64,000 nt of DNA, taken from the sequence record PQ478073.1. One strand, written 5' to 3'. The position numbers and the translations under genes were made by a program. Shown in pieces: positions 4,836 through 12,921 of this stretch (position 1 is the stretch's first letter; each line of letters begins with the position of its first letter). This DNA comes from a phage. Below the pieces are notes generated by a model that was not told the DNA's origin, did not search any database, and saw only the letters and a list, made by a program, of their open reading frames with translations.

Positions 4836-10093
<5,258 letters not shown>

Positions 10094-10123
10094 TTAAAAA
10101 ATATGGGACAGTATAAAAACCTG

Positions 10124-10132
10124 TGCTATAAT
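10124..10132 (+). promoter_or_regulatory. extended -10 promoter TGcTATAAT (gp32 leader)
   Basis: TGTGCTATAAT family; TTGACA at 10081-10086 further upstream. Confidence 0.5.
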
Positions 10133-10219
10133 GTAAAACGTTGAAGGAACAATGAAGTTTCTGAAACATTGAAGCCAATTAACAAATAACAAAGAAACCC
10201 AAAATCAAGGAAGATATAT

Positions 10220-11272
10220 ATGAAATCTCTAGCTGAAATTCGTGCACACCTAAAAGCAGAACAAGAAAAAGCAGAAGCTCAAAAGAATGGTACATTTACT
10301 GGCGAGCGTAAAGCTGATTCGTTCTTAGCTTTCTGGAACGTACCTTATAACGAACCACTAAACCTACGTTTTCTACCAGATGCAGATGAGTCTAACCCAT
10401 TCTTCTGGCGTGAACGTGACATGATTAACCTAACTTTCAATGGTGTAGTCGGTATGCACACTGATAAAGTTACCGTTCAAGTACCTTGTAACGAAATGTG
10501 GGTTCCTAAATCCTGTCCGGTTCTGAAAGAAGTACGTCAATGGTTCCAAAGTGCGAATGAAACAGGGAACGAAGAACTAAAAGCAATGGCTGGTCGTTAC
10601 TGGAAGAAGAAAACCTATCTAATGCAATGTTTTATTGCTCCTGATAGCGTTGCAGTAAAAGACGACATTGCACCAGAAAATCCAATTCGTCGTATTCTGG
10701 CTAACAAAGATATCTTTGATAAAGTTAAATCCATCCTGCTAAACCCAGGCATCAAAGAGTCTCCAACTCACTACGTTCAAGGTCGTGATTTTGGTATTGT
10801 TAAAACTAAGAATGGTGGTGGTTATAATAGCTACGACATGTCTCAATTCTCCATGTCTGAGCGTCCACTAAACGAAGAAGAACTAGCAGCAATTGAAAAA
10901 TATGGCCTATACAATCTAAATGATTTTATGCCAAAACAACCAACTCCAGAAGAGTTGAAAGCAATTGAAGAAATGTTCGAAGCATCAGTAAATGGTGAAG
11001 CATATGATCCAGCACGTTGGGCATTTGCATATCGTCCAGCAGGTGTACCAAAACCTAACTCTGGAACTGTTACTGAATCAAAACCAACTCCTGCTCCAGT
11101 ACAACAAGAGTCAGCACCTGCACCAGTAGCACCTACTGCTCCAGTTACACCAGCCCCACAAGCTGCTCCAGTAACTCCAGTCGCTACCCCAGCAGCAACC
11201 ACTCCTGAAGCACCAAAAGAACAACTATCTGCATCTGCACTAGTTGCTCGTTTGAAACAACAAGGTAAGTAA
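10220..11272 (+). CDS. 32: single-stranded DNA-binding protein (T4 gp32-like) with Pro/Ala/Thr-rich C-terminal tail
   Basis: LRFLPDADESNPFF resembles gp32 core (recalled); Cys cluster; AAGGA RBS; long structured leader. Confidence 0.7.
   Translation: MKSLAEIRAHLKAEQEKAEAQKNGTFTGERKADSFLAFWNVPYNEPLNLRFLPDADESNPFFWRERDMINLTFNGVVGMHTDKVTVQVPCNEMWVPKSCPVLKEVRQWFQSANETGNEELKAMAGRYWKKKTYLMQCFIAPDSVAVKDDIAPENPIRRILANKDIFDKVKSILLNPGIKESPTHYVQGRDFGIVKTKNGGGYNSYDMSQFSMSERPLNEEELAAIEKYGLYNLNDFMPKQPTPEELKAIEEMFEASVNGEAYDPARWAFAYRPAGVPKPNSGTVTESKPTPAPVQQESAPAPVAPTAPVTPAPQAAPVTPVATPAATTPEAPKEQLSASALVARLKQQGK
11090..11220 (+). repeat. imperfect short tandem repeats encoding PAPV/TPAP low-complexity tail of SSB
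   Basis: Reiterated gctccagta / cctgcaccagta units. Confidence 0.6.
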
Positions 11273-11290: not shown

Positions 11291-11320
11291 GGGGCAACGG
11301 AGTTTGCCCCGTTTTATTTC
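11291..11320 (+). terminator. rho-independent terminator
   Basis: GGGGCAA-loop-TTGCCCC then GTTTTATTT. Confidence 0.75.
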
Positions 11321-11341: not shown

Positions 11342-12460
11342 ATGAAAATGACAAGTGGTTTTGCGAACATTCTTAAAAACAGTACTGGTAGTGTTAAAAA
11401 GAATACTGGTGTTAGTGTTGGTTTTCATGATCCAGATACATGGGTTAGTACTGGTAACTATGCACTAAATTATCGCATCAGTGGCTATTTTGACCGTGGT
11501 ATCCCACTAGGCAAAGTAACGATGTTTGCTGGTGAATCAGGTAGTGGTAAATCTTTTATCGTATCTGGTAATATTGCACGTGAAGCTCAAAAACAAGGCA
11601 TCTTTGTTGTTATGATTGACTCAGAGAACGCATTGGATTCAGATTGGCTTCAAGCACTTGGTGTTGACACTTCTGAAGAAAAACTTTTGAAAGTCAATAT
11701 GGGTATGATTGGTGACGTTGCAAAATTCACCTATGAGTTCATTGAAGGATATCGTAAAGAATACGAAAATACACCTAAAGATGAACGTCAAAAAGTATTG
11801 TTTATTATTGATTCAATTGGTATGCTAAACACTGAAGTAGCCAATGATCAAATGAAAGCGGGTAACCTTAAAGGTGACATGGGTCATAAACCCAAACAGC
11901 TTAAAGCATATATCACAAACTGTGTAAACTCTATTGGTTCATTGAACATTGGTATGGTTTGCGTTAACCACAGTTATGAATCTCAGGACATGTTTAACCC
12001 AGATCCTAAAGTTTCAGGTGGTAGTGGCTTGATTTATGCTTCATCTATGGTTATCGCAATGGGTAAATTAAAACTTAAAGAAGATGAAGACGGAAATAAA
12101 ACTTCCGAAGTAAATGGTATTCGTGCTAAATGTAAAGTCATGAAGACTCGTTACAACAAGCCGTTCGAAGATGTAGAAATTAAAATTCCTTGGGATAAAG
12201 GTATGGACCCACGTAGTGGTCTACTAGATATGTTTGAAAAATACGGTCTAATCACTAAATCAGGTAACCGTCTATTGTATGTTGATATTGTAACTGGCGA
12301 ACAGATTCTAAAATATCGCAAAGAGTGGATGCGTAATGAAGATTCATGTCTTGATTTGGTAATGCATCAATTTAAAAATCATCCTTTGATTGAAGAAGTT
12401 AAAGAAGAAGAAAAAGGTGATGAAACTTTTGGTACTGATGTGGATATTAGTGAGGAATAA
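11342..12460 (+). CDS. uvsX: UvsX recombinase (RecA family)
   Basis: Walker A GESGSGKS; GLLDM block as in T4 UvsX; AAGGAG RBS. Confidence 0.9.
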   Translation: MKMTSGFANILKNSTGSVKKNTGVSVGFHDPDTWVSTGNYALNYRISGYFDRGIPLGKVTMFAGESGSGKSFIVSGNIAREAQKQGIFVVMIDSENALDSDWLQALGVDTSEEKLLKVNMGMIGDVAKFTYEFIEGYRKEYENTPKDERQKVLFIIDSIGMLNTEVANDQMKAGNLKGDMGHKPKQLKAYITNCVNSIGSLNIGMVCVNHSYESQDMFNPDPKVSGGSGLIYASSMVIAMGKLKLKEDEDGNKTSEVNGIRAKCKVMKTRYNKPFEDVEIKIPWDKGMDPRSGLLDMFEKYGLITKSGNRLLYVDIVTGEQILKYRKEWMRNEDSCLDLVMHQFKNHPLIEEVKEEEKGDETFGTDVDISEE

Positions 12461-12921
12461 TGAAACCTTGGCATTGGATTATCAAAGATGATAAATCTAA
12501 AATTATTGAAATGATTGAGTTCTTTAACAAAGAAGTTGAAGAAGCTCGTCGTGAAGTAAAGAAGATTGGCATCATTGAAAAAATTGCTCAAGAGATTCCT
12601 GGCTGGCATGAGATGCGTCTAAGCCAGCTTCAAGAACTTGAAGCAGTATTGGAAATGTTAGAAATTGAAATGCGTCAGGTACAAGCCGAGAAGTTCAAAT
12701 ACTTTCTCGAAGGATACCGCCGTGCACTATCTTCATCTGACTGTAAAAAGTATGTTGAAGGTGATAAAGATGTTTGTGAGTTAGCAGAACTTATAAACGA
12801 GGTATCTTATATAAGAAATACATATTCAAGTATTGTTAAATCCTTAGAGATGAAAGCTTTTCAGTTAAACAATATTGTGAGACTACGTGCCGCTGGTATT
12901 GAGGATGCACGTTTAGAATAA
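12460..12921 (+). CDS. uvsY: UvsY recombination mediator
   Basis: Directly downstream of uvsX with TAATG overlap; DKDVCEL ... KAFQLNNIVRLRAAG resembles T4 UvsY C-terminus (recalled). Confidence 0.65.
   Translation: MKPWHWIIKDDKSKIIEMIEFFNKEVEEARREVKKIGIIEKIAQEIPGWHEMRLSQLQELEAVLEMLEIEMRQVQAEKFKYFLEGYRRALSSSDCKKYVEGDKDVCELAELINEVSYIRNTYSSIVKSLEMKAFQLNNIVRLRAAGIEDARLE

Follow-up and report, generated by a model that had tools for sequence, protein, structure and literature searches.

A gp32-type single-stranded DNA-binding protein from RaK2-like phages with a predicted disordered Pro/Ala/Thr/Val-rich spacer and a conserved basic C-terminal tip

A 64,000 nucleotide (nt) stretch of the phage sequence record PQ478073.1, termed here the window, contains a complete gp32-family SSB (single-stranded DNA-binding protein) gene at positions 10220–11272 of the plus strand, as assigned from the list of open reading frames and from Pfam and PHROG searches. 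The gene encodes 350 amino acids (aa) followed by a stop codon. From one end to the other, the protein is predicted to consist of an N-terminal helix, a gp32-type oligonucleotide/oligosaccharide-binding (OB) core, then a spacer and, at the C-terminus, a short helix that is conserved. The most probable reading of this layout, with a probability of roughly 65%, is that the Pro/Ala/Thr/Val (P/A/T/V) segment is a disordered tether and that the terminal helix is a contact element. The spacer would be a tether of ~53 residues, intrinsically disordered, with next to no charge and probably fairly extended, and would hold the tip motif, S-x-x-D/A-L-L/V-A-R/K-L-K/R, away from the DNA-bound core. Selection on the spacer would act on its composition and reading frame and not on its sequence, and its length would change via slippage or recombination at short direct repeats. 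In effect a gp32 core would carry a layout like that of E. coli SSB, with a tip that is basic and helical and not acidic. This reading is based on how the domains are arranged, on the disorder prediction, on patterns of conservation, on in-frame insertions and deletions (indels) and on a tip motif that recurs and is duplicated.

The linker encompasses aa positions 280–332 (nt 11057–11215, plus strand), as delimited by its composition, by AlphaFold predicted local distance difference test (pLDDT) values and by the ratio of nonsynonymous to synonymous substitution rates (dN/dS). Its 53 residues include 14 Pro, 12 Ala, 9 Thr and 6 Val and have a net charge of −2. P/A/T/V residues account for 41 of the 53 (77%), versus 25% in the remaining protein (binomial P = 2e-15), and no second stretch of this kind, i.e. 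at least 75% P/A/T/V with at least 5 Pro per 30 aa, is present in the open reading frames of the window. The GC content of the linker is 52.8% versus 33.9% for the window, which places it in the top 0.05% of 159-nt segments. Third-position GC is just 11%. The GC richness is at codon positions 1 and 2 and thus is imposed by the amino acids, in opposition to the mutational bias of the genome.

The initial annotation, made from the sequence alone, had drawn attention to a 44 aa peptide, PTPAPVQQESAPAPVAPTAPVTPAPQAAPVTPVATPAATTPEAP. This is found at aa positions 289–332 (nt 11084–11215), at most 6 nt from where it had been placed. It had been described as the last 50 residues of the protein, which is incorrect: the stretch is 44 aa long, and another 18 residues, KEQLSASALVARLKQQGK, come after it. 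The lack of an acidic C-terminal domain, which had also been pointed out, is borne out by the charges, −2 in the linker and +3 in the last 18 aa versus −13 for residues 255–301 of T4 gp32 (the T4 sequence was checked against PDB 8gme_A). The acidic fraction of the tails is 0.07 in the close family versus 0.32 in T4. A flexible linker had been suggested, and disorder prediction agrees: in the AlphaFold model of the SSB (90 homologues in the alignment, mean pLDDT 82.8) the linker has pLDDT values of 37–52 and no secondary structure, and coil extends over aa positions 280–336. A PDB sequence search with the tail gives matches just to other Ala/Pro-rich linkers, with E-values of at least ~0.8, which are compositional; the only match, to chain 7q5s_A, is an Ala/Pro-rich linker followed by a helix (E = 0.78) and is compositional as well.

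Linker and tip are not conserved to the same degree. Among seven Asteriusvirus isolates the aa identity is 94–100% in the core, 49–92% in the linker and 94–100% in the last 18 aa. In relatives within the genus whose core identity is 94–95%, linker identity is 49–58%. For phage RaK2 the values are 84% in the core, 26% in the linker and 61% in the last 18 aa. The dN/dS of the linker within the genus is 0.19–0.58 versus 0.01–0.08 for the core, and that of the tip is 0–0.09. The tip is identical at 18 of 18 positions in six Asteriusvirus relatives and at 17 of 18 in JNE01. In 118 close homologues, drawn from a search of 5.8 billion proteins, the linker is 35–102 aa long (25–102 aa in the close family, depending on the choice of boundary) and consists of 22% Ala, 15% Pro, 14% Thr, 12% Val and 11% Gln, together 73% of its residues; aromatic residues and Arg are nearly absent. 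Within the family, a spacer rich in P/A/T/V characterizes the RaK2-like clade.

The conserved basic tip is at aa positions 333–350 (nt 11216–11269, plus strand) and was delimited by conservation and by the AlphaFold model, where a helix is predicted at aa positions 338–348 (nt 11231–11263) with pLDDT values of 52–68. The net charge of the tip is +3, and most tips of the family have a charge of +1 to +4. In the 118 close homologues the terminal motif, S-x-x-D/A-L-L/V-A-R/K-L-K/R, follows a conserved core end and the linker. To avoid circularity, a search with the core only (aa positions 1–279) was made against 1.84 billion cluster representatives. This gave 660 matches at E ≤ 0.001 (clusters at 50% identity), and a tip-like motif forms the C-terminus in 107 of the 134 representatives listed that have analyzable tails. 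The linkers in this set are acidic, Ser/Thr-rich or Lys/Glu-rich, with a median P/A/T/V fraction of 0.40 versus 0.65 in the close family. By a position-specific score, the terminal tip motif is present in 219 of 243 full-length family members (~90%).

About 16% of the family, in several lineages including RaK2, display a second tip-like motif located 30–67 aa (mostly ~50 aa) from the C-terminus. Examples are RaK2, with AASDLLNRLKTNS ... SAADLIARLKQQQK, and P0182, with TADLLAKLKKTE ... TADLLAKLKARQQG. The doubled motif is also found in homologues P0021, P0023, P0025, P0103, P0130, P0142, P0229, P0231 and P0238. Because the motif recurs at the C-termini of the family despite differing linkers, and because second copies are present, the tip is the ancient, conserved and modular element. 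It was overlooked in the initial annotation and, to judge from its conservation, is probably a better candidate for a contact site than the P/A/T/V stretch.

The placement of the gene in the gp32 family is supported by three methods that agree. The SSB matches Pfam PF08804 at aa positions 49–248 (E = 5e-7, 30.4 bits versus a cut-off of 26.8) and PHROG 1192, "single strand DNA binding protein", over residues 1–348 (E = 2e-101). A Foldseek search with the model finds the RB69 and T4 gp32 cores, 2a1k, 1gpc and 8gme, with a probability of 1.0 and template modeling (TM) scores of 0.59–0.71 on the target, although the core identity to these gp32 structures is 16–17%. An NCBIfam search gave no match to the SSB. 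Since the Pfam match is limited to aa positions 49–248, the tail and the tip are without any curated model. The N-terminal helix, SLAEIRAHLKAEQEKAEAQ, is at aa positions 4–22 (nt 10229–10285, plus strand; AlphaFold helix, pLDDT ~75) and, on the basis of the model, would be the counterpart of the N-terminal cooperativity (B) domain of T4 gp32. The motif derived from this helix in the family has its best match on T4 gp32 at residues 5–17, KSTAELAAQMAKL (P = 0.046 versus shuffles). Residues M1, R8 and A9 are almost invariant in the 90 homologues. A short Gly/Asn-rich connector and the gp32-type OB core follow at aa positions 23–279 (nt 10286–11056, plus strand), with pLDDT values above 90 at approximately aa positions 40–278. 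The core ends in the conserved motif YDPARWAFAYRPAGVPKP; ahead of the linker the core end reads YRPAGVPKP.

The length of the SSB gene varies among Asteriusvirus records from 1026 to 1068 nt (341–355 aa). The initial annotation had anticipated variation in tail length among isolates, and a comparison of isolates with at least 94% nt identity, together with P0005 (a database protein, 97% identical), confirms this: there are four independent in-frame indels, all within the linker. E9.1 has a deletion of 18 nt at positions 11123–11140, SP27 a deletion of 27 nt at positions 11136–11162, P0005 a deletion of 27 nt at aa positions 293–301, and ph0011 an addition of 6 nt near position 11065. All three deletions sit between direct repeats of 5–12 nt within positions 11090–11172 of the plus strand, as located by Tandem Repeats Finder (TRF) and by repeat positions. 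The sequence CTGCTCCAGT is present at 11091, 11136 and 11163, and the SP27 deletion is exactly the interval between the copies at 11136 and 11163. The P0005 deletion is flanked by CCTGCTCCAGTA (at 11090) and CCTGCACCAGTA (at 11117), which have a spacing of 27 nt, and the E9.1 deletion is flanked by CCAGTA and CCAGTT. The simplest explanation of the indels is that short direct repeats slipped or recombined. With its natural length polymorphism, the linker may serve as a marker for typing of Asteriusvirus isolates.

The same DNA had been described as imperfect short tandem repeats, for which the DNA-level signal is weak. TRF reports a single array, at positions 11121–11181, with a period of 27, 2.3 copies and 73% matches, and the autocorrelation at lag 27 is the sole signal above codon-shuffled linkers (P = 0.006, uncorrected for 20 lags). 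Measured against the same codon-shuffled linkers, neither the repeated k-mers nor the longest exact repeat reaches significance (P = 0.05–0.16). The linker has no homopolymer and no perfect microsatellite. From the codon-shuffle tests, the repetitiveness of the linker is mostly compositional. A description of the linker as a repeat array was dropped, as codon shuffles reproduce most of the repeat signal.

Other explanations of the tail were considered. The P/A/T/V stretch could itself be an alternative interaction module in place of the acidic domain found in T4 gp32, one of the two roles suggested in the initial annotation. It does stand where T4 gp32 has its C-terminal domain, the close family keeps its composition, and Pro-rich segments can be ligands of some binding domains. 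However its sequence is poorly conserved, with an identity of 26–58% where the core has 84–95% and a dN/dS of up to 0.58, and its length varies from 35 to 102 aa. Distant homologues keep the core and the tip with acidic, Ser/Thr-rich or Lys/Glu-rich linkers, and the conserved element is the tip, with its identity of 94–100%. A contact role of the stretch is therefore unlikely. That the linker is neutral low-complexity DNA, prone to slippage and unselected in both length and composition, is improbable to a similar extent. Fast evolution, frequent indels and a DNA repeat structure that is weak and irregular would all be expected from such DNA, but the linker is at least 20–25 aa long in nearly all analyzable homologues, core identities in the clade that keeps the P/A/T/V/Q composition span 45–100%, the GC-rich codon positions 1 and 2 are upheld against a 34% GC background, and dN/dS is below 1 within the genus.

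Two further explanations concern the helix and the DNA. Membrane-targeting sequences typically display a flexible linker and then a short basic helix, and the C-terminal helix could be a membrane-targeting or nucleic acid-binding basic helix of the MinD/FtsA type with the linker as its leash. The charge of the tip (+3) and of most family tips (+1 to +4) would suit this, but the hydrophobic moment is low at 0.24 and the helix is without aromatic residues, the D-L/I-L-x-x-L/I core is common to acidic T4-type ends that are unsuited to binding membrane or DNA, and the tip resembles the N-terminal protein-docking helix. This explanation is thus very improbable. The presence of length polymorphism in near-identical isolates might also suggest a contingency locus, with the repeat region acting as an on/off switch of the SSB gene or changing the gene through frame shifts. 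There is hardly any likelihood of this, since every indel is a multiple of 3 (6, 18, 27 and 27 nt), no homopolymer or perfect microsatellite is present, and the tip downstream, being under strong purifying selection, needs an intact frame. A phase-variation locus was ruled out on the basis that all indels are in frame.

Several points weigh against a tether with a contact helix. With a hydrophobic moment of 0.24, the tip has only weak amphipathic character, and its AlphaFold confidence is only moderate (pLDDT 52–68). The dN/dS below 1 in the linker could reflect compositional constraint alone, with no role for length. In addition, a literature search of incomplete coverage found no description of the tail, of the tip or of the likeness between the tip and the N-helix.

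If the terminal helix is a contact element, the tip would bind a protein surface. The candidate preferred here is the core of the SSB itself, at the site where a neighboring molecule's N-helix is received or close to it. This target is favored because the motif is kept across cores of only ~35% identity and because it resembles the N-helix. UvsX, UvsY or replisome proteins may be the target as well; this is equally compatible with the data and is not exclusive of binding to the SSB core.

The tip resembles the N-terminus of the same SSB, as seen in a comparison of SLAEIRAHLKAE with SASALVARLKQQ. A matrix derived from N-helices only places its best non-self match within the final 24 residues for 62 of 90 homologues, versus 0–17 of 90 for control matrices from five core helices. 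In the reverse test, from tip motif to N-helix, the count is 73 of 90 versus 3–35 of 90 for controls. The best non-self match of the N-helix matrix among the 97 open reading frames of the window that start with ATG is the SSB tip; with the tip matrix applied to the whole window, the N-helix of the SSB is not within the top ten matches. A profile-profile alignment (hhalign) of N-helix and tip gives the expected register over 10 columns with P = 7e-4 and a probability of 27%. On T4 gp32 the tip matrix has its best match at residues 5–17, KSTAELAAQMAKL, i.e. the cooperativity helix (P = 0.012). In view of the hhalign probability of 27% and the failed window-wide reverse search, only a resemblance is claimed here and not a common origin.

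In T4, the N-terminal helix docks on the neighboring gp32 molecule near helix 141–152 (PMC11551737). This T4 helix aligns with helix 163–173 of the SSB. It is conceivable, although doubtful, that the tip is a tethered look-alike of the N-helix that docks at the site of that helix on the SSB core, probably near helix 163–173. In cis, such a tip would compete with the N-helix of a neighbor and the free protein would be kept "off". In trans, it would add a second, long-range link between SSB molecules on single-stranded DNA. The reach of the tip would depend on linker length, which would thereby adjust how cooperative the SSB filament is and how it turns over.

Seven of nine T4-type gp32 proteins that were fetched (from Straboviridae and a Vibrio phage) share an L-D-D-L-L-x-x-L-type motif at their ends, e.g. 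DLDDLLNDL in T4, DLDELLNGL in CC31, LDDLLAGL in JS10 and LDDLLDEI in Acj61; VDDILNDLI, LDKLLDM and LDALLADL are also found. These ends display the same D-L/I-L-x-x-L/I core as the SSB tip, in an acidic setting and after variable acidic tails. The motifs are very short and homology is not claimed; the likeness to the SSB tip would be a resemblance of short sequences. Since T4-type ends carry the related L-D-D-L-L-x-x-L motif, the look-alike principle might extend to gp32 proteins generally. The gp32 ends of cyanophage, Campylobacter phage and Ackermannviridae deviate, with MSYFARLAEED, DDDWLNNL and IEDFEAFLKQN, respectively.

The SSB and T4 gp32 have in common the OB core fold, the N-terminal helix, a disordered C-terminal region and the D-L-L-x-x-L core at the end. 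Both genes are located among recombination and replication genes, i.e. uvsX and uvsY here and the gene for the helicase loader gp59 in T4 relatives. They differ in that T4 gp32 has an acidic Ser/Asp tail (−13) whereas the SSB linker has a charge of −2, and in that the SSB tip is basic and extends 4–8 residues beyond the last Leu. With a linker that lacks charge and a basic tip, the acidic, DNA-mimicking flap proposed for T4 would not apply here unchanged. A C-terminal helix of T4 gp32 at residues 248–270, located directly after the core and ahead of the acidic Ser/Asp tail, docks on the Dda helicase; the initial peptide screen of that study was without gp32 residues 281–301 (PMC11551737). No counterpart of the Dda-binding helix 248–270 was seen by eye in the SSB.

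The LAST motif is Lys-Arg-Lys-Ser-Thr (PMC12893549). Its K-R-K is another difference from T4 gp32, as the basic triad is absent from the SSB N-terminus, MKSLAEIR, the family consensus of which is M-A/K-S/T-L-A-E-I-R. The zinc site may also be altered. The ligands of the T4 gp32 site are His64, Cys77, Cys87 and Cys90. In the 90 SSB homologues the only invariant cysteines are C90 and C99, within nt positions 10475–10528 (aa 86–103, VPCNEMWVPKSCPVLKEV). The T4 zinc-ligand motif C87-P-V-C90 aligns to C99-P-V-L102 of the SSB, and only two of the four T4 ligands match conserved residues. Judged by this alignment, the gp32 zinc site may have been lost or rebuilt in the SSB family.

The linker of E. 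coli SSB is Gly/Gln/Pro-rich. The E. coli protein displays a disordered low-complexity linker of 56 residues and a conserved 9-residue tip that recruits partners, and the linker is described to influence cooperativity (PMC7145534; bioRxiv 10.1101/2022.01.17.476650). The spacer-plus-tip logic and the dimensions are similar here, with a linker of 53 residues and a tip of ~14–18 residues. E. coli SSB differs in being a homotetramer, whereas the T4 prototype of the gp32-type fold is a monomer, and in having an acidic DDDIPF tip whereas the tip here is basic and predicted to be helical; the linker composition also differs. An acidic-x-P-F/W motif is found inside the disordered linker of many distant gp32-type SSBs, e.g. 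DDDIPFDT, DEDDVPFES, QDDEPPFETS and DDGVPFDLDD. Carriers are P0109, P0110, P0120, P0127, P0130, P0136, P0139, P0190 and P0265, and also KP15 gp32 and the protein of Campylobacter phage F365. With its likeness to the DDDIPF of E. coli SSB, this motif may be a host-partner mimic. The acidic-x-P-F motif is absent from the SSB of the window.

Other systems offer partial likenesses. In the adenovirus DNA-binding protein, a C-terminal arm hooks a neighboring molecule and gives rise to cooperative chains on single-stranded DNA. A tip that acts as a look-alike of the N-helix would, by analogy, show similar C-terminal hooking; the adenovirus protein differs in its unrelated fold and in that its arm is without a 50-residue disordered spacer, and binding in trans is only hypothesized for the SSB tip. 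The Ala/Pro-rich inter-domain linkers of 2-oxo-acid dehydrogenase E2 chains are flexible, extended tethers. They share the Ala, Pro, Thr and Val composition and the role of a tether, but there is no homology and they belong to other proteins and processes. The tail of the phage T7 SSB, gp2.5, is short and acidic with an aromatic last residue and makes partner contacts. This C-terminal tail is reported to regulate DNA binding (PMC10359462). The two phage SSBs are thus alike in a C-terminal tail with a regulatory role in T7, and differ in that the tail here is long and neutral with a basic helix at its end.

The gp32 protein serves as the textbook example of a cooperative SSB, and current models of its regulation and partner recruitment center on the acidic C-terminal domain. 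The proteins analyzed here represent a large sister family of gp32, comprising 660 clusters at 50% identity and including those of the jumbo phages RaK2, PBECO4 and PA5oct. The sister family keeps the core and the N-helix, the acidic domain is replaced by a neutral spacer, and the end is a conserved basic helix. The functions of spacer and contact would be more cleanly separated here than in T4. Disordered SSB tails are already known and a P/A/T/V-rich tail alone is ordinary. Of interest are the spacer-plus-tip architecture of the gp32 sister family and possible mimicry of the N-helix; the latter, if true, would point towards a general mechanism of self-regulation for gp32-type filaments.

The linker is also the source of a false antisense gene call. 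An open reading frame of 119 aa with a GTG start is listed on the minus strand at positions 10843–11202, and its Gly/Ala/Thr/Val-rich translation mirrors the linker codons. The initial annotation had regarded it as spurious, and three observations support this. The frame remains open in A4 as well as in near-identical isolates but not in TH47, JNE01 or RaK2, where it is interrupted. It has no Pfam match at E-values up to 1. From arithmetic on the coordinates, its third codon positions coincide with the third positions of the sense frame, and it is thus a shadow of that frame.

The SSB gene is preceded by a ribosome-binding-site-like sequence, AAGGAAG, at positions 10207–10213 of the plus strand. 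A terminator-like hairpin, GGGGCAACGGAGTTTGCCCC, followed by a T-run is present between the SSB and UvsX genes at positions 11291–11310 (plus strand, from a pattern scan). Directly downstream of the SSB gene are a UvsX-like open reading frame (11342–12460) and a UvsY-like open reading frame (12460–12921). The stop codon of UvsX and the start codon of UvsY overlap at base 12460, which suggests translational coupling. The last 22 aa of the UvsX-like protein (nt 12392–12457), EEVKEEEKGDETFGTDVDISEE, are strongly acidic, opposite in charge to the basic SSB tip. Directly upstream of the cluster, at positions 8742–10028 of the plus strand, is the gene for a 428 aa protein that matches PHROG 13484 (E = 9e-262), is labeled "virion structural protein" and has no Pfam domain. 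The gene order of this protein and the SSB-UvsX-UvsY cluster is kept in RaK2, E9.1 and A4. Two similar elements of promoter type, GGGACA-N16-TATAAT, each with a TG extension, are found upstream of the SSB gene at positions 10030–10057 and 10105–10132 (plus strand), 75 nt apart, and these may represent a phage-specific promoter motif.

Escherichia phages PBECO4, G17 and Sharanji carry the SSB gene with 100% nt identity, and 121Q carries it with 99.8%; all four are Asteriusvirus, i.e. RaK2-like jumbo phages. The gene is annotated as SSB in many existing records. In 121Q, UB, Ecwhy_1, 7t3 and PA5oct its GenBank label is "structural protein". Mass spectrometry of purified phAPEC6 virions has detected an identical SSB (4 peptides) and a RecA/UvsX-like protein (2 peptides), i.e. 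gp203 and gp204 (PMC7247149). This may be due either to packaging or to carry-over of abundant proteins. In the proteomics paper on PA5oct, the SSB is absent from the main text.

In MH494197.1 (phage CMSTMSU) the SSB gene is split over three coding sequences annotated as "hypothetical protein", and tblastn gives three pieces, which suggests frame shifts that arose by sequencing error or reflect a disrupted gene. Homologues P0006, P0012, P0016, P0019, P0020, P0050 and P0058 show 5–25 additional residues ahead of the M-K/A-S/T-L-A-E-I-R start, most likely as a result of mis-called start codons.

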